Shown piece after piece: positions 8,786 to 17,711 of a stretch of 17,711 nucleotides of DNA (its first letter is position 1; each line of letters begins with the position of its first letter). A program made the position numbers and the translations under genes. Source of the DNA: a virus. The notes below the pieces were generated by a model that had not been told where the DNA came from, made no database searches, and worked only from the letters and a program-made list of their open reading frames with translations. The stretch lies in the UHGV virus genome UHGV-0089979. One strand, written 5' to 3'.

Positions 8786-9081
8786 ACTGTTTTCAGTTTG
8801 TGTGCGGATGTGCTTTCGATAACCCGATTCAGCGCCTGATTATGTTGCGTGTTTTGATGTCGGGTTCTTCAGACGGTGAAGGCGAGAGAGTTATTGATCA
8901 TCAGGTGCTTGCTGATTTCTGCTGTTGTTCTAAGCAAGCGATATTCAGGGAAACCCTGGCACTGGAAAGAGCTGGTTATCTTCATATCCGAAAAATTGCA
9001 ACGCTTACTATTGATGCAAAAGCCAGACTACAACCTGCGCGTGGCTACACAATTCTCATGCCGCGGAAGGAGGTTGTATGA
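8782..9081 (+). CDS. Hypothetical protein (99 aa, GTG start), possibly DNA-binding
   Basis: GTG at 8782 preceded by GGAGGTG and overlapping the upstream stop; its own stop overlaps the start of the O-like gene. Cys-rich N-terminus. Confidence 0.4.
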   Translation: MNCFQFVCGCAFDNPIQRLIMLRVLMSGSSDGEGERVIDHQVLADFCCCSKQAIFRETLALERAGYLHIRKIATLTIDAKARLQPARGYTILMPRKEVV

Positions 9082-10055
9082 GCCGTTACGCCCCCACACC
9101 GGAAGTTATGGCTATTGGTCAAATTAATATTTCCGGCAATGTTACACCTGCGAACTGGTGGAAATATATTCGACTACCCAGTGGGCGTCCGGATGCGACG
9201 GCTATCGCTCTGCTTTCAGAGATCGTTTACTGGTACCGCCCGACAGAGGTCAGGGATGAGCACACCGGAGCGTTGCTGGGATATCGCAAGCGTTTTCAGG
9301 GCGACAAACTGCAAAGAAGCTACCAGGCGTTTGCTGAGCAGTTTGGTTTCGGGAAAAGGGAAACCGCAGATGCGCTGAAGCGTCTGCGCGATGCAGGGTT
9401 TATTACTCTGGATTTACGCACGGTGGAAATGCTCGATGGGGTGAAATGCAGCAATATTTTGTTTGTCGGGATCAACCCACAGGCAATTGCGGCCATCACC
9501 ACACCTTCTTCTGTTTCGCCAGAAAGTAACAGCAATAATGCAATCAGCGATACAGCTATTACGTTAAAACGGAACACCCCCCGACGTCATAACGGAACAG
9601 GGGATACGCCGAATGTTGATACAAATACAGAGATTACTACAGAGATTACAACGGAGACTAAAAACACTATTGATGCATCCGCTGACGCGTCTGCGCCAGC
9701 GCGTTCTGCCCGACAGGAATATTCACCGGAATTTGAACAGGCCTGGCAGGAATATCCCAAACGTGCTGGTGGCAATTCCAAGTCAGCAGCCTTCAAAGCC
9801 TGGAAAGCCCGTATCAGGGAGGGAATAAAACCGGAGACCATGCTTGATGGCGTGAAGCGGTATGCCGCCTGGGTACGTGCTACAGGAAATACCGGCACAC
9901 AGTTCGTGAAGCAGGCTGCGACGTTCTTTGGACCCGATCGTCACTTTGACGAATCCTGGCAACAGCCAGCAGCTCCCGGAGGTGGGCGGGGCAAAAGCCT
10001 CCCGATCTCGGGATTCAGTGAGCAGGACTACGGTTCAACGAACTTCAACTGGTGA
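9078..10055 (+). CDS. Replication initiation protein, lambda O-like N-terminal domain (325 aa)
   Basis: The N-terminal region (ALLSEIVYWYRP...FGFGKRETADALKRLRDAGFI) resembles phage replisome-organiser N-domains (from memory). Position directly upstream of the helicase loader and helicase. Central low-complexity linker contains DNA repeats. Confidence 0.7.
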   Translation: MSRYAPTPEVMAIGQINISGNVTPANWWKYIRLPSGRPDATAIALLSEIVYWYRPTEVRDEHTGALLGYRKRFQGDKLQRSYQAFAEQFGFGKRETADALKRLRDAGFITLDLRTVEMLDGVKCSNILFVGINPQAIAAITTPSSVSPESNSNNAISDTAITLKRNTPRRHNGTGDTPNVDTNTEITTEITTETKNTIDASADASAPARSARQEYSPEFEQAWQEYPKRAGGNSKSAAFKAWKARIREGIKPETMLDGVKRYAAWVRATGNTGTQFVKQAATFFGPDRHFDESWQQPAAPGGGRGKSLPISGFSEQDYGSTNFNW

Positions 10056-10074: not shown

Positions 10075-10965
10075 ATGTTTGAACAGTTAAAAAAACACTA
10101 CGCACAACACGACAAAGCGCAATTGCTCAACCGCAGGGCGGAACTGGAGGAGGAGATGCAGTTTGCCCGTGCCGGGAAGCGCCCGTGGCGCTGTGAACAC
10201 TGGCTGACAAGCGAGGAAACTGCTGAGTGTGAGAAACACGGGAAATACGCACGTCTGGTGTTGAAAGGGCCTGATGTTCGTGGGGAAACCATCAAACGGG
10301 TTTCTGGTTGCCCGACCTGCATTGCGAATGAACTGGATCAGGTACAGGAGGCGTTACGCATCCTGAAAGTTCATGAATTACTCGACAGGGCTGGTATTGC
10401 CCGCCGCTTCCAGAACTGCGAGTTTGAGAATTATCAGGCGGTGAATGCTGACGCACAGAGAAATCTTGAGGCTTGTCGGCGCTATGCCGGCTCATGGGAG
10501 AAGTGTCTTGCTGCGGGTACCAGCATGATCATGATTGGCAATTGCGGTACCGGGAAAAATCACCTAGCTGTATCAATGGCAAAAAATATTATTCACCACC
10601 ACCTGGCGACTGTCGAAATTACGGATGTCATGCGACTGACCCGCGCTGTGAAAAATACCTGGCGTCACAATTCTGAACGCACTGAAGATGAAGTTATTGA
10701 CCATTTTGTATCGCTGGACCTGCTCATCATCGATGAGGTTGGTGTGCAGTTCGGTACGCCAACAGAGATAACCATCTTGCAGGAAATCATCAATGCACGT
10801 TACGAAAGCGTTTTACCGACAATTTTGATCAGCAATCTGACGTTTGACCAGCTTAAGGAGTCCATTGGTGAACGAATTGTGGATCGCGTTACTGATGGTG
10901 GGCGTAATTGCCTGGTGTTTGGTTGGGAAAGCTACCGTGTACATATCAGAGGTGTGGCAGCATGA
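10075..10965 (+). CDS. DnaC/IstB-like AAA+ helicase loader (296 aa)
   Basis: Walker A GNCGTGKNHLAVS and Walker B LLIIDEVG; N-terminal Cys cluster; immediately upstream of the DnaB-like helicase. Confidence 0.85.
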   Translation: MFEQLKKHYAQHDKAQLLNRRAELEEEMQFARAGKRPWRCEHWLTSEETAECEKHGKYARLVLKGPDVRGETIKRVSGCPTCIANELDQVQEALRILKVHELLDRAGIARRFQNCEFENYQAVNADAQRNLEACRRYAGSWEKCLAAGTSMIMIGNCGTGKNHLAVSMAKNIIHHHLATVEITDVMRLTRAVKNTWRHNSERTEDEVIDHFVSLDLLIIDEVGVQFGTPTEITILQEIINARYESVLPTILISNLTFDQLKESIGERIVDRVTDGGRNCLVFGWESYRVHIRGVAA

Positions 10966-12362
10966 CAAACCAGACAAATCCGGCGTGGCGTAATGATGAC
11001 CTGGAAGGCGCTGTCATTGGTGCGTTTTTTCTGCGAGGGGCAGATCATGAAGTGATGGATATTCTGGCCACGCTTCCGGCGGATGTCTTTTTCGTGCGTC
11101 AGTACAGGGATATTTACGCGGGGATTTGCAGACAGGCCCGCGTATCCGGCGTCATTGACCCCGTGCTGCTGTGCAATGAGATGCCGGAACTTGCCCCGGT
11201 GATTACAGACACCGGGCGTAAAACCTGGGTGAAGTCTTCACTGGAGCACTATGTTGCAGCCTTGCGTCGCAATGCCGCACTGCGTGATGCAGAAAAGACG
11301 CTGAATGAGGCGTTGCAGAAATTACGTGATGCGCATACCTGTGAAGCAGCTGAAGATGCCCTGAAGGATGCGCAGAAAATGATGGCCTCATTGTCGACGG
11401 AAAAGGGCGTTATTCAGCCTGTTCACATTGATGATGTACTTCCGGAAGTGGTCGACCGTGTTGAATGCCGGAATCAGGGACTGGAGAAATCCAGAACGCT
11501 GATGACCGGTATTGATGAACTGGACGCAAAAACAGGCGGCATGGAGCCCGGCGACCTGGTATTTATTGCGGCTCGTCCGTCAATGGGCAAAACCGAACTG
11601 GCGCTGGACATCATCGACAAGGTGACTGAGCAGGGGCATGGCGTGCTTCTGTTCACCATGGAGATGGCGAACATCCAGATTGGTGAACGTATGGTGTCTG
11701 CTGCCGGTGGAATGCCGGTATCCCGTCTTAAGTCTGTTGCCCGTTTTGAAGACGAAGACTGGGCACGCTTCTCACAGGGTGTGGGACGAATGACGGGGCG
11801 TAATATCTGGATGGTGGACCAGGCAAACCTGACCATTGATGAGATATGTGCAACCACGAAGCACCACCGGATGAAACATCCGGAAACGGCGCTGGTGGTG
11901 GTCGATTACCTCGGCCTGATTAAAACCCGCAGCACGGGGCGTCACGACCTTGCGGTGGGGGAAATCTCAAAGGGACTTAAAAGCCTGGCAAAATCCGGCG
12001 GTTTTCCGCTGATTGCTCTGAGCCAGCTCTCCCGCGGCGTGGAATCCAGACCCAATAAACGCCCCATGAACTCGGACCTGAAAAACTCCGGGGAAATCGA
12101 GGCGGATGCCGACATCATTCTGATGCTTTACAGGGATGAGGTATACAACCCGGAAACGCAGGCCGGAGGCATAGCAGAAATCAACATCACGAAACAGCGT
12201 AATGGCACGCTCGGGACCATTTACCGGCGTTTTCATAACGGACATTTTCTGCCTGTGGATCAGGAAAGCGCACAGATTCTTTCCACCCCAATGCAGCAGC
12301 CTCAGCCGCGCAGATACAGCAACAAACGAACTGACAGCAGTAAGATGGAGCGTTTCTTTTGA
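10962..12362 (+). CDS. Replicative DNA helicase, DnaB family (466 aa from the ATG at 10962)
   Basis: Walker A ARPSMGKTELAL, DnaB-like C-terminal motifs (ALSQLSRGVESR, ADADIILMLYRDEVY). The ATG at 10962 overlaps the upstream stop and follows GAGGTG; the track start at 10908 is less likely. Confidence 0.9.
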   Translation: MTNQTNPAWRNDDLEGAVIGAFFLRGADHEVMDILATLPADVFFVRQYRDIYAGICRQARVSGVIDPVLLCNEMPELAPVITDTGRKTWVKSSLEHYVAALRRNAALRDAEKTLNEALQKLRDAHTCEAAEDALKDAQKMMASLSTEKGVIQPVHIDDVLPEVVDRVECRNQGLEKSRTLMTGIDELDAKTGGMEPGDLVFIAARPSMGKTELALDIIDKVTEQGHGVLLFTMEMANIQIGERMVSAAGGMPVSRLKSVARFEDEDWARFSQGVGRMTGRNIWMVDQANLTIDEICATTKHHRMKHPETALVVVDYLGLIKTRSTGRHDLAVGEISKGLKSLAKSGGFPLIALSQLSRGVESRPNKRPMNSDLKNSGEIEADADIILMLYRDEVYNPETQAGGIAEINITKQRNGTLGTIYRRFHNGHFLPVDQESAQILSTPMQQPQPRRYSNKRTDSSKMERFF

Positions 12363-12373
12363 ACAACCAGACA

Positions 12374-12616
12374 ATGACTTTTACCCCTGAACAATTACGT
12401 AAACAGGCACAGGAAATGTTGCGACAGGCGGAACAACTGGAAAAAACAGGTGTAACAAAAGATGCCATTCGTCGGGATATGGTGCCAGCGCTCAGGGAAC
12501 TGATGCAGGCAAAACATCGCGCACAAAAAGCAGTGGATGAGCTGGTGGACTGTGTGGCAGAGCTGGAAACCAAAGTTGGAAAGTTTGAAAAACTGGTGCA
12601 GGAGGTACTGCGCTGA
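12374..12616 (+). CDS. Hypothetical small coiled-coil protein (80 aa)
   Basis: ATG at 12374 (the track start at 12359 is a TTG overlapping the helicase stop); its stop overlaps the Q-like start. Confidence 0.5.
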   Translation: MTFTPEQLRKQAQEMLRQAEQLEKTGVTKDAIRRDMVPALRELMQAKHRAQKAVDELVDCVAELETKVGKFEKLVQEVLR

Positions 12617-12963
12617 TGCGTGATATGTACGAAGTTTTAGATCGTTGGGGGGCTTGGGCTGCAGCAGAAAATAGTGGTGTCGACTGGCAGCCGATAGCGG
12701 CTGGTTTCAAGGGGCTTCTACCACACGGTAAAAAGTCACGTCTCCAGTGCGATGATGATGAAGGAATTATGATTGATGGATGTGTGGCCCGGTTGCGGAA
12801 ATATAAACCAGAAGAATATGAGCTGATCATTGCTCACTTTGTTATCGGGATTTCACTCCGTACAATCGCAAAGAAGCGGAAATGCTCGGATGGAACTATT
12901 AGAAAGGAGTTGCAAACTGCACTTGGATTTATTGATGGTATTATGTGTATTCTAAATAGATAA
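12616..12963 (+). CDS. Short antitermination protein Q-like (115 aa), resembling the DLP12 QuuD type
   Basis: MRDMYEVLDRWGAWAA...AAGFKGLL...CDDDEG..DGCVARL...SDGTIRKEL..GFIDG matches my recollection of the roughly 127-aa QuuD family; C-terminal HTH-like segment. Assignment from memory, not a search. Confidence 0.6.
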   Translation: MRDMYEVLDRWGAWAAAENSGVDWQPIAAGFKGLLPHGKKSRLQCDDDEGIMIDGCVARLRKYKPEEYELIIAHFVIGISLRTIAKKRKCSDGTIRKELQTALGFIDGIMCILNR

Positions 12964-12993
12964 AAACAGCCTTGGTCCAGATAATAAAACTTA

Positions 12994-13659
12994 TTATTTT
13001 CTGGACTTTGCTGTTCTCGCACTTTTGTCTTTAGGTGCAAATCCCAATATTACAGCGAAATGTCTTACTTTGTATGGTAATCCAGATTTAGGGTGTTTGT
13101 GGCTAGAGTAAAAGCTCAACTTTTCTCTTGTTTTGCAATCGGATAAATAAAAATCTTCAAAGTCATCTTTTTTAGAGGTTAATGTTTTTTTCCATTTCTC
13201 TACGACATCTAATGCATTGTTGCTTTTCACATAAATTATTAATCCTCCTTGACAATCATCTTCACTTCCTGTGGAGTAACGAGAGCATAATTGATGGAAT
13301 CCTTCCATTAAATAGTCGTATGAGCTATGAATTTTAGCCTCTCCAATCCATGTGTAGTTTTTGAAACTTACAACAATGTCTGAGTGCCCATTTATATAAT
13401 TATCATGACCAGAATCATATCCGAAGCCAATTAGTATATTAATTATTTCTATAGATAAACGGTCTTCTCCATCGTTTTGCATTAAGCTTGCATTTTTTTC
13501 AATCAATCTGATTGTTTTTTCTAAGTCAATATAAAACATTTCAATAAATTTATCGTATGAATTGCATGTAATTCTTCGATAAAGGCGTGCTGCGCTCTCA
13601 TCGAATGACGCTGCGAACTTCAGCGATTCTAACGTAAAATTATTCTGATTATCCATCAT
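12994..13659 (-). CDS. Cassette gene C: hypothetical protein (221 aa from the ATG at 13659) with a PD-(D/E)xK nuclease-like signature
   Basis: The ATG at 13659 overlaps the TGA of gene B (ATGA). Motif string GHSDIVVSF...TWIGEAKIH...HQLCSRY fits the D...ExK core. AT-rich coding sequence. Confidence 0.6.
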   Translation of the reverse strand: MMDNQNNFTLESLKFAASFDESAARLYRRITCNSYDKFIEMFYIDLEKTIRLIEKNASLMQNDGEDRLSIEIINILIGFGYDSGHDNYINGHSDIVVSFKNYTWIGEAKIHSSYDYLMEGFHQLCSRYSTGSEDDCQGGLIIYVKSNNALDVVEKWKKTLTSKKDDFEDFYLSDCKTREKLSFYSSHKHPKSGLPYKVRHFAVILGFAPKDKSARTAKSRK

Positions 13660-14048
13660 TCTAGGCCTTTCCAGAACTCTGATGCATAAAAGTAAATGTA
13701 AACTTTCGACTGCCAATTGAGGACTGGTTTGCCATCGAAATAGAATGTTCCTTCTGAATATATTTTGCTTAACTCATCTTGAGAGATTTCAAAAATGTCA
13801 TCACCATCAATATATTCGTATCCGATTGATAATATTGGTGCTTTTTCTCCAGATAGATAAGTAATTGCCTCGTAAAGGATACTTTGATCAACATTACTGA
13901 CTTTTTGCAAGTTATTGAATGTTATATATTTTAAATTATCCAGATCTTCATTAAGCAGGTAATGATAAATATTCATACATGCAAAACCAACTTTGCTGTC
14001 GGTAGCAAAAGAATGTTGTATGATATCTTTCATTTCCTGCTTATTCAT
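13656..14048 (-). CDS. Cassette gene B: hypothetical protein (130 aa)
   Basis: ATG at 14048 directly follows the TAA of gene A (TAAATG); AT-rich; no recognisable motif. Confidence 0.65.
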   Translation of the reverse strand: MNKQEMKDIIQHSFATDSKVGFACMNIYHYLLNEDLDNLKYITFNNLQKVSNVDQSILYEAITYLSGEKAPILSIGYEYIDGDDIFEISQDELSKIYSEGTFYFDGKPVLNWQSKVYIYFYASEFWKGLE

Positions 14049-15101
14049 TTAGAAAACCTTTGACATCAATAACTCATAATCTGATTTACAAACACACCCT
14101 TCGATTATAACATGATTTATAAATGGTAGCGAGGATGAAATTAAAGAAAAATGTCCGGGTACATGCATTGTTAAAATATTATTGTGTGCTCCATTCCATT
14201 GTTTAGAAATACTAAAGTTATTAGTTTTCCCTCCAATTGCCGCTAAGCCTGCGGCATGATATTTTTCCTTCCTTAAATCATCTTTTCTCTTTCTCATTTT
14301 TTCTTCTTTTACTGAGCCTGTTCCTGTGGCATGCCCAAGTTTTAAAATGGTACCATCGGCAGATTTGTAAAGTTTATCGATAGCAGTAAATATATTTTTT
14401 CTAATGAAGGCGACGTGATATGAATTCTCTTTATGGAAAAGGTACATTAATATTCTGCGATATCTTGTTGATGCGCGCTCCAATTCATTGTGGTTAAGAT
14501 TTGTACACATGTCGATTTCAAATGTTATTTCGCCGGAAACATAGTTAAAAGTAATTGTGTCAAAACATTGGATGTATCTATCTTTTATTCCAATTATTTC
14601 ATCAAAACAATTGAGTTCTTTTTGTGTTGCTGGGCTTAGTGTATTTGTTTCAATTGCACTTCTTTCTTTGAATGGACGAAGATAAGTTGTTGTAATAGTG
14701 ATCGAGTTACCATGTTGAGAGTGGGAGATGCAGACTGGTCTTAATTTTTTGACTTTTTTATGTGTTGCGCTATCTATTGGCAATGGGTAGGTGGCAATGT
14801 ATTCTTGATAATCTTTATCGTTGCTGTTAATCAGATTTAACAAGGTTTTTTTCAAGAGGATTGCGTCAGTGATATTATTCAGTTGAGCAAAAAATACGGC
14901 CCGATTGCTGTAATTCAATTGGCTGAGGTAAATCTCCTTGAGATTATTTATTATATCCTTTTCATTATTACTTGCATAATCAGATAGCAACTCTGTCCAC
15001 CCCCTAGCTGACTTCATATTAAAATACTTTAATTCGCCTTGAAGAAGCCTGAAAGAGATGTTTCTTGCCTGAAGACCAAACAGGTAGTCGTTCGCTTTCA
15101 C
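14049..15101 (-). CDS. Cassette gene A: hypothetical protein (350 aa, GTG start)
   Basis: First gene of the AT-rich leftward operon. The GTG at 15101 is preceded by AAAGG and an in-frame TAA two codons upstream; the first in-frame ATG is at residue 29. No family recognised. Confidence 0.65.
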   Translation of the reverse strand: MKANDYLFGLQARNISFRLLQGELKYFNMKSARGWTELLSDYASNNEKDIINNLKEIYLSQLNYSNRAVFFAQLNNITDAILLKKTLLNLINSNDKDYQEYIATYPLPIDSATHKKVKKLRPVCISHSQHGNSITITTTYLRPFKERSAIETNTLSPATQKELNCFDEIIGIKDRYIQCFDTITFNYVSGEITFEIDMCTNLNHNELERASTRYRRILMYLFHKENSYHVAFIRKNIFTAIDKLYKSADGTILKLGHATGTGSVKEEKMRKRKDDLRKEKYHAAGLAAIGGKTNNFSISKQWNGAHNNILTMHVPGHFSLISSSLPFINHVIIEGCVCKSDYELLMSKVF

Positions 15102-15140
15102 TAGTCGTTACCTTTTACCTTTAGAATTAGAGAAAAGTTA

Positions 15141-15169
15141 AATATACAAAAGAGCTAACGCGTACGCAA
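15141..15169 (-). promoter_or_regulatory. Candidate sigma-70 promoter for the leftward cassette (-35 TTGCGT, 17-nt spacer, -10 TATATT)
   Basis: On the minus strand TATATT lies at 15146-15141 and TTGCGT at 15169-15164 with 17 nt between; the -35 is weak. Confidence 0.3.
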
Positions 15170-15217
15170 AAGTTATTGTAATGTGTTAAGAGTGGTTACT
15201 TTGCCACACAGCTTAAA

Positions 15218-15240
15218 CCCGCGCTGAGCGGTTTTTTTTT
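15218..15240 (+). terminator. Terminator-like element on the plus strand (short GC stem CCGC-gctga-GCGG followed by nine T)
   Basis: Stem 15219-15222 pairs with 15228-15231, followed by T9 at 15232-15240. The stem is short, so strength is uncertain. Confidence 0.45.
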
Positions 15241-15363
15241 GTGCCCGGAAAGCGGCACAGAACATTAAACGCGCTGGTAGTTGTGAATACTGGTCTTTCA
15301 GCTTGCTGGCTTTTTGGACAAGAGTTATTGGTATGTCACGTTAACCGGAAAAGGGAAAAAGGC

Positions 15364-15561
15364 ATGCTAAAACAGCAGGATATGACCGAAACCGCCAGAG
15401 TGGTGTTTAATGAATTAAGCGTCACCGAACCGGCGACCGTCGGGGAAATTGCGCAGAATACTTACCTTTCACGCGAACGCTGCCAGTTAATACTGACTCA
15501 GCTTGTTATGGCGGGTCTGGCAGATTATCAGTTCGGTTGTTACAGACGCCTTCCGCAGTGA
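15364..15561 (+). CDS. Small hypothetical protein (65 aa), winged-helix-like
   Basis: Track ORF 15241-15561 trimmed to the ATG at 15364 (preceded by AAGGGAAAAAGG). The segment EPATVGEIAQNTYLSRERCQLILTQLVMAGLADY looks like a wHTH recognition region. Followed by a strong terminator. Confidence 0.5.
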   Translation: MLKQQDMTETARVVFNELSVTEPATVGEIAQNTYLSRERCQLILTQLVMAGLADYQFGCYRRLPQ

Positions 15562-15570
15562 AGGCTTTTT
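15548..15570 (+). terminator. Rho-independent terminator (GCCTTC-cgcagt-GAAGGC followed by TTTTT) overlapping the stop codon of the small wHTH gene
   Basis: Seen directly: 6-bp perfect stem at 15548-15553 and 15560-15565, then a T5 tract at 15566-15570. Confidence 0.6.
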
Positions 15571-15711
15571 AATTTGTGGTAATGGGCGGCTGGTGGGTGT
15601 TAGCGGCACCTGCCAGCCATCTGCTCATGCGTTGGGGTCACAAGCAAACCTCAGGCCCATCTGCTTTGCGCAAAAGCGGTATGAGCCTATCAGAGAAGTG
15701 CTTATTGATCT

Positions 15712-16761
15712 ATGATTAATACTGTAAAAATATCCAGTTGTGAGTTAATCAACGCTGATTGCCTGGAGTTTATCCAGACCTTACCGGAAAACTCTGTCGA
15801 TCTGATAGTCACAGACCCGCCATACTTTAAAGTGAAGCCCGAGGGCTGGGATAACCAGTGGGAGGGCGACGATGATTACCTGAAATGGCTGGACCAGTGT
15901 CTGGCGCAGTTCTGGCGGGTACTGAAGCCTGCCGGAAGTCTTTACCTGTTCTGTGGTCATCGCCTGGCATCTGACACCGAAATCATGATGCGTGAGCGCT
16001 TTAATGTGCTGAACCACATTATCTGGGCGAAGCCGTCCGGACGCTGGAACGGGTGCAATAAGGAAAGTCTGCGGGCGTATTTTCCGGCAACAGAGCGCAT
16101 TCTGTTTGCAGAACATTATCAGGGACCGTATCGCCCGAAAGATGATGGCTATGTGGAGCAGGGGCGCGAGCTAAAACAGCACGTCATGGCCCCGCTGATT
16201 TCTTACTTTCGTGATGCGCGTAAATCACTGGGAATAACGTCAAAACAGATAGCGGAAGCCACCGGAAAGAAAAACATGGCTTCGCACTGGTTTGGTGCCA
16301 GTCAGTGGCAGTTACCGAACGAGGGTGATTACAATAAATTGCAGGCGTTGTTTGCGCGTGTTGCGGCAGAAAAACATCAGCGCGGGGAACTGGAAAAGCC
16401 ACACCACCAGCTGGTCAGCACATACAGTGAGCTGAACCGGCAGTATACGGAACTGCTGAGTGAATATAAAAATTTGCGGCGGTATTTCGGTGTGACGGCG
16501 CAGGTTCCGTACACCGATGTCTGGACGCATAAACCGGTGCAGTACTATCCAGGGAAACATCCGTGCGAAAAACCGGCAGAAATGCTGCAGCAGATAATCA
16601 ACGCGAGCAGTCGTCCGGGAGACCTGGTTGCAGATTTTTTTATGGGTTCAGGTTCAACGGTAAAAGCGGCGATGGCACTGGGGCGTTGTGCGATTGGTGT
16701 TGAGCTGGAGACCGGACGTTTTGAACAGACAGTCAGGGAAGTTCAGGATTTAATCGTTTGA
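15712..16761 (+). CDS. DNA methyltransferase, beta-class (N6-adenine or N4-cytosine), 349 aa
   Basis: N-terminal DPPY motif (VDLIVTDPPYF) and C-terminal AdoMet-binding motif (DLVADFFMGSGST), the circularly permuted order of beta-class amino-methyltransferases such as YhdJ. Confidence 0.85.
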   Translation: MINTVKISSCELINADCLEFIQTLPENSVDLIVTDPPYFKVKPEGWDNQWEGDDDYLKWLDQCLAQFWRVLKPAGSLYLFCGHRLASDTEIMMRERFNVLNHIIWAKPSGRWNGCNKESLRAYFPATERILFAEHYQGPYRPKDDGYVEQGRELKQHVMAPLISYFRDARKSLGITSKQIAEATGKKNMASHWFGASQWQLPNEGDYNKLQALFARVAAEKHQRGELEKPHHQLVSTYSELNRQYTELLSEYKNLRRYFGVTAQVPYTDVWTHKPVQYYPGKHPCEKPAEMLQQIINASSRPGDLVADFFMGSGSTVKAAMALGRCAIGVELETGRFEQTVREVQDLIV

Positions 16762-16810
16762 AACGGATGAGATTGCAGAATTAATTACGCACCATTATTA
16801 TTCTGCTCCC

Positions 16811-16886
16811 GGCCCTTTAGCTCAGTGGTGAGAGCGAGCGACTCATAATCGCCAGGTCGCTGGTTCAAATCCAGCAAGGGCCACCA
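16811..16886 (+). tRNA. tRNA with anticodon CAT, 76 nt including CCA; closely resembles E. coli tRNA-Ile2 (ileX-type, read as Ile after lysidine modification)
   Basis: Cloverleaf built by hand: acceptor stem GGCCCTT/AAGGGCC, anticodon loop CTCATAA (CAT at 16844-16846), T-arm GGTTCAAATCC, 3' CCA. Search tools would probably call it Met. Confidence 0.85.
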
Positions 16887-16893
16887 TCACATA

Positions 16894-16970
16894 CCGCCAT
16901 TAGCTCATCAGGATAGAGCGCCAGCCTTCGAAGCTGGTTGCGCGGGGTTCGAGTCCTCGATGGCGGTCCA
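16894..16970 (+). tRNA. tRNA-Arg, anticodon TCG, 77 nt including CCA
   Basis: Acceptor stem CCGCCAT/ATGGCGG, anticodon stem CCAGC/GCTGG with loop CTTCGAA (TCG at 16928-16930), T-arm CGGGGTTCGAGTCCTCG, 3' CCA. Confidence 0.8.
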
Positions 16971-16983
16971 TTATCTGTACCCT

Positions 16984-17060
16984 GCGTTGTTAGCTCAGCC
17001 GGACAGAGCAATTGCCTTCTAAGCAATCGGTCACTGGTTCGAATCCAGTACAACGCGCCA
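16984..17060 (+). tRNA. tRNA-Arg, anticodon TCT (reads AGA), 77 nt including CCA
   Basis: Acceptor stem GCGTTGT/ACAACGC, anticodon stem ATTGC/GCAAT with loop CTTCTAA (TCT at 17018-17020), T-arm TGGTTCGAATCCAGT, 3' CCA. Confidence 0.85.
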
Positions 17061-17074
17061 CGCTTATTTTTCCA

Positions 17075-17097
17075 GGCTCGCTTCGGCGGGCCTTTTT
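17075..17097 (+). terminator. Rho-independent terminator after the tRNA cluster (GGCTCGC-ttcg-GCGGGCC followed by TTTTT)
   Basis: 7-bp stem with one G-U pair, a TTCG tetraloop and a T5 tract, 15 nt after the last tRNA. Confidence 0.65.
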
Positions 17098-17235
17098 CAT
17101 ATCCGCGCCACGCCCGGCGCACATCAAAAAACCACAGAGCCTTTCAGGGGTGAGCTTACGGGATGGTCAGTGTGACTTTCTCTGTGGGCTGGTCACCCCC
17201 GGGCGCAGGCTCACCCACTAAAAGGAAAAGTCACG

Positions 17236-17661
17236 ATGTTTGGTATTTTCAAAAAGAAAACCCGCAAGGCCATTACCGAAGTGAAGAAGATGGAGAACCG
17301 TGACGCAGTGGAGGCGACCGTCTGGGGCGCGTACTCCATTGCATACGCTGACGGCACCTGTGACGCGAAAGAAATCGCGGTACTGGAAAAAACCATTGCA
17401 GCACTTCCTGTCTTTGCGCCGTTCTCCGGTGAGATTGCACAAATGAGTGCAAATATCCGCGCCCGTTATGAAGCGTCGCCGCGTTCTGCCAATGCCGAAG
17501 CTCTTCGTCAGCTGGCTGATGTTGCCGGTACTGATGATGCAGTTAATGTGCTGTGCCTGTGTCTGGATATCGCTGACCAGGACGGTATCGCTCAGGAAGA
17601 AGAAGCGCAACTGAAGAAAATTGCGCAGGCGCTGCAGTTGCCGCTGGAGCAGTACCTGTGA
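17236..17661 (+). CDS. TerB-like (tellurite-resistance TerB domain) protein, 141 aa
   Basis: ATG at 17236 preceded by AAAGGAAAAG. Two-part pattern (WGAYSIAYADGTCDAKEIAVLEK...; LCLCLDIADQDGIAQEEEAQLKKIAQALQL) matches the TerB fold signature from memory. Confidence 0.55.
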   Translation: MFGIFKKKTRKAITEVKKMENRDAVEATVWGAYSIAYADGTCDAKEIAVLEKTIAALPVFAPFSGEIAQMSANIRARYEASPRSANAEALRQLADVAGTDDAVNVLCLCLDIADQDGIAQEEEAQLKKIAQALQLPLEQYL

Positions 17662-17711
17662 AAAGTGCGCGCCTTGTGCTGGCTGTCATCCTGTTGTTTC
17701 TGGTAGTGGTG
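17658..17711 (+). CDS. Possible 5' end of a further gene (GTG start; hydrophobic N-terminus VKSARLVLAVILLFLVVV), truncated by the window edge
   Basis: The GTG at 17658 overlaps the TerB-like stop; the hydrophobic stretch is signal-peptide or membrane-like. Only 18 codons are visible. Confidence 0.2.
   Translation, partial: MKSARLVLAVILLFLVVV

Follow-up and report, generated by a model that had tools for sequence, protein, structure and literature searches.

Classic lambdoid phages carry their late promoter, pR', directly after the gene for the antiterminator Q, and the arrangement found in the viral genome UHGV-0089979 raises the question of where late transcription begins when that place is taken by other genes. 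The stretch analysed here (17,711 nucleotides, hereafter called the window) carries a Q-like open reading frame (ORF) at 12616-12963 on the plus strand, and three minus-strand genes that are convergent with Q fill positions 12994-15101. The window is identical, by sequence comparison, to a phiP27-like prophage of Escherichia coli strain E200139, where RefSeq calls the three genes alike. The first-pass annotation of this DNA noted that about 30 base pairs (bp) separate the Q stop codon (12963) from the 3' end of the cassette (12994), which agrees with the 30 bp that we measure. It offered two explanations: either the cassette entered the DNA that separates Q from the late promoter, or late transcription must run antisense through the cassette. 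The former is strongly supported, because a homologue of the pR' of phage 933W lies directly past the cassette (15155-15240) and because relatives with the same type of Q carry other inserts, or none, at that position. The latter is not supported, because pR' is found past the cassette and directs transcription away from the three genes. We conclude that the window very probably holds a late control unit of the 933W type whose two halves have been separated by cargo, and in which Q acts on a pR' located 2.2 kilobases (kb) downstream.

The late promoter module and its link to Q

By its sequence, the 115-residue product of the ORF at 12616-12963 is a Q antiterminator of the PF06530 (Q21/Q933W) family, where it falls into a Q933W/QuuD-like subfamily. 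The protein matches the Pfam model PF06530 (Phage_antitermQ) over residues 1-113 of 115 (E 6.9e-46; 155.5 bits against a cut-off of 26) and the family PHROG 79 (E 1.3e-47). These matches bear out the earlier description of the ORF as Q-like, which had come with the caveat that it might not be a Q antiterminator at all. Weak matches resembling region 4 of extracytoplasmic function (ECF) sigma factors are present as well, and the Q protein of phage 21 (Q21), the sole relative with a solved structure, is matched weakly (E 0.005). The gene is located 3' of genes for DnaC-like and DnaB-like proteins, and the holin, endolysin and terminase genes are found downstream, which places Q at the end of the early-right operon.

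The first-pass annotation had proposed an alignment with related prophages as a means of finding the late promoter, and this comparison locates it directly past the cassette. When the window is aligned with a Shiga toxin 1a (Stx1a) phage of O145:H28, phiP27 and Stx2a_1447, one block is common to all four, just past inserts that differ among them. The block consists of GTTAAGAGTGGTTACTTYGCCAC followed by a hairpin and a run of T nucleotides. The database record for 933W annotates pR' (-35 TTTACG, -10 TATCAT), a putative qut site and a terminator at columns that match this 90-bp module of the window, and the promoter of the window (15155-15184, plus strand) aligns column for column with the annotated pR'. 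Its -35 element is weak (CTAACG/TAACGC, 15155-15161), its -10 element reads TAATGT (15179-15184), and the spacer between them contains a palindrome and an A-tract. A TAnnnT -10 element occurs at the same position in nearly all of about 160 relatives, with CAGTAT in one promoter class.

Immediately downstream lies a conserved start-site block, GTTAAGAGTGGTTACTTTGCCAC (15185-15207, plus strand), a 23-mer that occurs once in the window where 0.00 occurrences are expected by chance. Its invariant core, TAAGAGTGGT..C...G.CAC, straddles the start site and is found from Escherichia to Serratia, Yersinia and Erwinia with any type of Q. The block is likely the region in which polymerase pauses and Q is loaded. 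Late transcription would start at 15189-15191, an estimate that draws on prophage Sp5 of strain Sakai, which is identical to 933W across the module. There, differential RNA sequencing (dRNA-seq) placed the PR' start 258 nucleotides (nt) upstream of a 3' end mapped by Term-seq (PMC7547250). Counted back from the second terminator, the Sp5 start falls on the A/G of TAAGAG, which corresponds to positions 15189-15191 of the window.

The start-site block is conserved as sequence rather than as structure. A GUGG..CCAC hairpin at the 5' end of the RNA does fold, but it was rejected as a conserved structure: pair 4 is kept in 14 of 31 cross-genus sequences, with essentially no compensatory change. The stretch TACTTT (15197-15202) is a doubtful candidate for a sigma-dependent pause element, as it is not conserved outside E. 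coli. The AAGAGT-GG portion of the block resembles the lambda pause element, AACGAT-GGG. A further candidate was that the short pR' transcript might be an AgvB/AsxR anti-small RNA (anti-sRNA), as suggested by a CACACAGC/CACAAC stretch. AgvB and AsxR are described as convergent genes located 3' of a moron, with a conserved 3' part and a variable 5' part (PMC4104026), and a search of positions 12500-17711 against Rfam returned no AgvB/AsxR match at E values up to 1. This identity was rejected both because the described layout differs and because Rfam gave no match.

The module ends in a hairpin, CCGC-GCTGA-GCGG, that is followed by nine T nucleotides (15218-15240, plus strand). This substructure is homologous to the 'possible rho-independent terminator' of 933W and appears to be a weakened variant of a promoter-proximal, tR'-like element. 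The letters of the stem vary among relatives while the pairing is kept. A consensus terminator scan did not list the site because its stem contains only four G-C pairs. The first-pass annotation had called it the first terminator-like element on the plus strand. The element is indeed present, and it is the first in the sense that it is the first conserved one: the plus-strand scan also gives matches inside the cassette at 14238 and 14769, both at chance level, and another hairpin is located at 12974-13007. In 933W/Sp5, the 258-nt pR' transcript passes the first hairpin and T-run (locus L212, 762-784) and ends at the second terminator (965-993).

Two samples tie the module to Q. The first is composed of viral-contig loci that were found by the 23-mer, and in each of the 107 loci whose upstream DNA was long enough, a PF06530 Q precedes the module on the same strand, at a distance of 3-3780 bp. 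The second comprises 80 species genomes that were picked by the Q protein alone, with the motif unused, and in which only the Q strand was searched. A single module match is found in 51 of these 80 genomes, always downstream of Q, and the 38 matches that were scored lie 8-2916 bp from the Q stop codon. The module is also widespread in E. coli, where 3709 of 5426 complete genomes carry it, and among the records listed no annotated feature lies under the match.

The Q stop codon (12963) and the -35 element (15155) of the window are 2191 bp apart, with the three convergent genes in between, and pR' is therefore not adjacent to Q as in the canonical layout. The first-pass annotation had allowed that a late promoter/terminator pair might be located elsewhere, for example past the transfer RNA (tRNA) genes. 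This is not what is found, as the E200139 prophage carries only one module and no second one further downstream. Between the cassette and the holin gene, the plus strand has no consensus promoter and at least three terminator-like sites, which fits with a late operon that is processively antiterminated. In Enterobacter (locus L127) and in prophage DLP12, the module is located directly upstream of the lysis genes.

Palindromes and Q types

The promoter spacer contains, just past the -35 element, a palindrome of 8-9 bp that differs between promoters in step with the helix-turn-helix (HTH) region of Q. In the window, this palindrome is GCGTACGC, followed by AAAA (15160-15167), and the recognition-helix region of Q reads ...GISLRTIAKKRKCSDGTIRKELQ. 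When promoters and Q proteins are sorted by these two features, the recognition region ..SLRTIAKKRKCSDGTIRKELQ, to which the window belongs, goes with GCGTACGC, the region ..SKRKLAKARKKDEKLIRIEIQ with GCGGTCCGC, the region ..TLRVLGVKLGISLNQVVIRLQ with GTTATAAC, and the phiP27-type Q with GGAATTCC. Proteins with ..TFMALARKHG.SD..G..LQ, which include Q933W and QuuD, go with ACAATCGT, ACGATCGT or ACGTACGT. The pairing extends to the subtypes of this class, in which SDCWVGRLLQ is found with ACAATCGT, SDTCIGKRLQ with ACGATCGT and SDGHIGKKLQ with ACGTACGT. For some types, the palindrome is extended to 14 bp (TTTACGATCGTAAA). In the 23-mer sample, the palindrome type agrees with the Q HTH type in 104 of 104 loci from 6 classes, and the two also match in all 38 scored species genomes (the HTH region was read in 37).

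Within a class of Q the inserts differ, and the same variants of the downstream flank occur with several classes of Q. The pairing has been kept despite this exchange of inserts and flanks, and we therefore take the palindrome as a likely Q-binding element. Judging from the loci compared, linkage alone would not easily maintain the pairing through so many exchanges. The Q-binding element (QBE) of lambda lies between the -35 and -10 elements, like the putative element here.

In the mechanism that we propose, Q would act in trans on the late promoter at 15155-15184, with transcription starting near 15190. Q would recognise the GCGTACGC palindrome in the spacer and load onto RNA polymerase at the promoter, and the modified polymerase would then pass the hairpin at 15218-15240 and the later terminators (15548, 17074 and one immediately ahead of the holin gene). 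It would thereby transcribe a small ORF, a methylase gene, the tRNAs, terB, and the lysis and structural genes. The cassette would stay outside this late operon, convergent with Q, with a hairpin terminator of its own and probably its own promoter next to pR'.

The cargo slot between Q and pR'

The interval between Q and pR' has the characteristics of a hotspot, including variable content between conserved flanks, empty sites, and known defence systems among its cargo. At empty sites, the Q stop codon is found 27-38 bp from the start-site block (15 loci of the first sample). The interval is also empty in 933W, where the Q stop codon lies inside the promoter, whereas the window has 2.2 kb of convergent cargo at this place. 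Filled loci carry 32 distinct clusters of inserts, which are 525-3780 bp long with a guanine-cytosine (GC) content of 0.30-0.42, and 28 of these 32 clusters are purely on the strand opposite Q. Cargo of the defence type includes Kiwa (KwaB, 2.3e-150), a KAP NTPase (PDC-S20, 2e-176) and PDC-S42. Other inserts carry an OLD/Gabija-like ATPase with a Dcm methylase, GmrSD_N with HEPN and Dcm, a 1060-residue NACHT-phosphoesterase protein, an SDH protease, or NA37 proteins. The slot of phiP27 is occupied by a GIY-YIG/T5orf172 nuclease, and that of strain E94 by an ompC-like porin.

The last ~10 residues of Q (window 12930-12963) follow the insert in their sequence, independently of the remainder of the protein, and one insert with its Q tail can be joined to different Q bodies, with the switch point after a conserved GF(I/V)(D/E)G. 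Since this tail moves together with the cargo, the exchange on the left takes place within the 3' end of Q. The exchanged unit thus begins ~10 codons before the Q stop and reaches to a point ~45 bp ahead of the late start site. The cassette of the window is one of many interchangeable accessory modules in this slot. The same Q, cassette and promoter are present at 99.1% identity in Stx1a phages of O145:H28 (Stx1_14040, LC567819; locus L001, 4315-8601). In Stx1_14040, stx1A starts ~490 bp past the module, and the cassette is thus located between Q and the late promoter of stx1.

The cassette is composed of three genes, all on the minus strand. Gene A (14049-15101) codes for a rare protein of 350 residues with a weakly RdgC-like fold, gene B (13656-14048) for a protein of 130 residues that belongs to PHROG 11490, and gene C (12994-13659, in an ORF that extends up to 13716) for a protein of 221 residues that is a PD-(D/E)xK nuclease candidate. 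The gene C product has a restriction-endonuclease fold with an invariant D..ExK, which places it in the PD-(D/E)xK superfamily. The region from 12950 to 15200 has a GC content of 0.29-0.36, compared to ~0.5 on either side. A strong hairpin at 12974-13007 overlaps the stop codon of the cassette and is predicted to function as a terminator on both strands, with folding energies of -14.2 (plus) and -13.6 (minus) kcal/mol and z scores of -4.6 and -3.9. None of the cassette proteins matches Pfam, NCBIfam or PADLOC (none below 1e-3 in the last of these), and we accordingly rejected assignment of the cassette to a named defence family. In PHROGs, the proteins fall only into families of 'unknown function'.

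The same three genes, in the same order and at 61-68% identity, are found in Enterobacter prophages, where they are flanked by a type-1 Q on one side and by the module on the other, with the lysis genes following at once, and a divergent copy is located behind a type-2 Q (locus L026). In Lysobacter (locus L130, 4554-6672), the cassette forms a free-standing operon outside any prophage, with genes for 351, 130 and 223 residues. The 130-residue gene holds the middle position in the operon copies of both Enterobacter and Lysobacter. From the distribution of these copies, the three-gene cassette is judged to be a real and mobile unit. The neighbours of the Lysobacter copy are genes for a UvrD-like helicase and an M78-peptidase/HTH protein, an H-NS-like gene and RHS genes.

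The most likely function of the cassette, and our best guess from its context and fold, is that of an anti-phage defence system with a PD-(D/E)xK nuclease as its effector. It speaks against this assignment that the support comes from context and fold, while PADLOC and Pfam give no match. The genes might instead be another set that benefits the lysogen, or a selfish nuclease module that uses the same slot. Such a function would agree with the missing match to any named defence family and with the porins, lipoprotein-like ORFs and GIY-YIG/T5orf172 nuclease that the slot also carries. However, the nuclease fold retains an intact catalytic triad, the three-gene operon is kept across genera, Kiwa, PDC-S20 and OLD-like systems share the slot, and the Lysobacter copy adjoins the UvrD-like helicase, M78-HTH and RHS genes. 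We therefore regard a function other than defence as unlikely, although it retains appreciable weight.

Two other accounts of late transcription bear on the position of pR' itself. If the late promoter were located right after Q (~12957-12985), Q-modified polymerase would cross the whole cassette antisense before it reached the late genes. This layout would be the classic lambdoid one, and a promoter-like sequence that matches at 9 of 12 positions (TAGATA-17-GATAAT) is indeed present at 12957-12985. However, the match is located in exchangeable insert DNA that differs with each cargo, and was rejected on that ground. It also shares positions with the strong hairpin at 12974-13007, the single counterpart of the 933W pR' block is located at 15185 and not there, and promoter-like matches in this AT-rich region are near the chance level (15 found, 10.4 expected). 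A late start right after Q is thus extremely improbable. Alternatively, 15155-15240 might drive a short RNA or the downstream accessory genes without any need for Q, with the true target of Q elsewhere or lost and the prophage defective. The weak consensus match and the weakened hairpin would be in keeping with such a promoter, and pR'-terminated transcripts of Stx phages are known to act as small RNAs (StxS; PMC7547250). This account is difficult to reconcile with a Q-type/palindrome pairing that is perfect in two independent samples, with the homology of the module to the 933W/Sp5 promoter that drives stx and the late genes, and with the lysis genes that immediately follow the module in DLP12 and Enterobacter. 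Moreover, no other module or consensus promoter precedes the holin gene, and the downstream late genes look intact. We consider a Q-independent promoter to be very unlikely.

Several observations nevertheless weigh against a split 933W-type unit in which Q acts on pR' through the palindrome. The promoter has ~6 of 12 matches to the sigma-70 consensus and is absent from the promoter scan, which argues against a strong constitutive promoter. The stem at 15218-15240 consists of four G-C pairs only, whereas the stems of relatives measure 5-9 bp, and the mapped 3' end of the Sp5 pR' transcript is the second terminator, 258 nt downstream, rather than the homologue of 15218-15240. The first hairpin may be leaky or may serve pausing, or its ~50-nt product may have been missed in the Sp5 mapping. 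No clear -10-like pause element is conserved in the cross-genus comparison. The pairing between Q and the palindrome could partly reflect close linkage, and the solved relative, Q21, binds two direct 8-bp repeats rather than a palindrome (bioRxiv 10.1101/651190).

The cassette might also be linked to the lytic switch. Of the minus-strand promoter matches in the window, the best is located back-to-back with pR' (15141-15169), with a -35 element TTGCGT (15164-15169), a -10 element TATATT (15141-15146) and a 17-bp spacer. The -35 element of this possible cassette promoter overlaps the palindrome, and bound Q could therefore block it, which is a lead that we regard as suggestive only. Only 11 of 51 distinct junctions have a best match that puts the -35 element on the palindrome, and thus a consistent cassette promoter is not supported as a rule and stays a lead. 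Transcription of the early operon that reads through past Q could also meet the cassette head-on, and the 12974-13007 hairpin sits exactly between the two. Taken to its full extent, this line of reasoning would describe a dedicated, orientation-constrained slot that is wired to the lytic switch, with the cargo promoter on the Q site and the cargo head-on to the early operon, and with the palindrome/recognition-helix pairs forming a simple specificity code for the Q family. We hold this joint reading to be doubtful.

The surrounding genes and related systems

The first ORF of the late operon (15364-15561, plus strand) codes for 65 residues with weak winged-helix (TrmB-like) similarity. It matches PHROG 331 (1.4e-37), and both RefSeq and phiP27 carry the annotation. 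Leakage at the first hairpin might allow its expression in lysogens. A GTG-initiated ORF of 106 residues (15241-15561) is probably an over-extended version, as the annotated gene is the 65-residue ORF that begins at ATG 15364. A scan match for a terminator-like site (15548-15565, plus strand; 6-bp stem and T run) is followed by a gene for a DNA methyltransferase (15712-16761, plus strand; PF01555, 2.3e-44; PADLOC MTase_II, 1e-159). Three tRNA genes with CAT, TCG and TCT anticodons (16811-17060, plus strand; ARAGORN and Rfam) come next, as upstream of stx in Stx phages. The tRNA at 16811-16886 is called Met (CAT) by ARAGORN and tRNA-Ile (ileZ, an AUA reader) by RefSeq and phage records, and it is probably a lysidine-modified tRNA-Ile2. 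A strong terminator-like site is located past the tRNAs (17074-17093, plus strand; an 8-bp stem with 6 G-C pairs and a T run), and a TerB-family gene (17236-17661, plus strand; PF05099, 8.3e-8; PHROG 632) occupies the position that stx has in Stx phages. In locus L124, TerB-family and DUF3927 genes (10936-11510) are found between the tRNAs and the holin gene, where Stx phages have stx, and a terminator-like site (11560-11575) lies just before the holin gene; the lysis genes are beyond the window.

On the other side of Q, Pfam identifies two replication genes, which code for the DnaC-like loader (10075-10965) and the DnaB-like helicase (10908-12362). An ORF of 85 residues is located between the helicase gene and Q, and a replication-region ORF of 325 residues (9078-10055) contains a short TEITTEITTE repeat.

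The closest known counterparts are 933W and Sakai Sp5. They share with the window the family and a close subfamily of Q (MRD..WGAW..AAGFKG core), the homologous promoter, start-site block, and hairpin with T-run, and an ileZ-argN-argO-type tRNA trio downstream. Apart from its lack of an insert, 933W differs in its palindrome, which is ACGATCGT where the window has GCGTACGC, and each palindrome occurs with a different Q recognition helix. In addition, the window carries a methylase gene and a small ORF between pR' and the tRNAs, and terB instead of stx.

The DLP12 (qsr') prophage of E. coli K-12/B, with the gene order quuD - nmpC - essD/rrrD/rzpD, likewise has cargo in the slot, as its porin gene nmpC is convergent with Q, and its module is found ~165 bp before the holin gene essD (locus L126, 2195-5216). 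It differs from the window in the porin cargo, in its TTTACGTACGTAAA-associated type of Q and in being a defective prophage. A phage record annotated as a 434B recombinant (locus L211) carries the whole quuD-nmpC-module region of DLP12. According to PMC7918800, which cites the work, the lysis cassette of DLP12 is reported to be under the control of Q. For the published DLP12 promoter fragment, mapping of its primer puts the quoted +1 ~350 bp upstream of the module, near nmpC. The published promoter is thus probably a different, RpoE-linked one, although the mapping is not decisive.

The Q cassettes of lambda and phage 21 follow the same general plan, in which a constitutive promoter and early termination are combined with a Q that loads near the promoter and renders polymerase resistant to terminators. 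However, the Q protein of lambda has an unrelated fold, and phage 21 uses direct repeats for Q21 whereas the covarying element in the family of the window is a palindrome. The window differs from both in that Q is not adjacent to pR' and no clear -10-like pause element could be identified. A separate parallel is offered by the P2/P4 defence hotspots and by moron sites, which also have conserved flanks, interchangeable cargo of low GC content, and many known and unknown defence systems. Moron sites are described as lying downstream of pR' (PMC4104026), whereas the slot described here is upstream of pR', receives cargo that is almost always convergent with Q, and has its left junction inside the 3' end of the Q gene.

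Q proteins of the Q933W type, their pR' and prophage accessory genes are already known, and single cases of slot cargo have long been in databases (nmpC in DLP12, L22 in phiP27). In the literature that we searched, which did not cover several key papers, we found no description of a general slot upstream of pR', of constrained cargo orientation, or of the match between palindrome and Q.

For the biology of these phages, our reading implies that late transcription, and with it the transcription of stx1 in the Stx1a sister phages of O145:H28, starts past the cassette and does not run through it. With the module as a simple landmark, the true late start can be located in a very common class of prophages (including Stx1, Stx2a, Stx2e and DLP12-type), and the interval between Q and the module becomes a place to look for accessory and defence genes, as most of the 32 insert types, the cassette of the window included, lack a named function. 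The strict pairing of palindrome and recognition helix leads to testable predictions of Q sites for a family whose only solved member is the distant Q21. Were the slot wired to the lytic switch as in the doubtful joint reading, then Q and the transcription that reads through past it would shut the defence cassette off at the onset of late expression, which would spare the phage from its own cargo.

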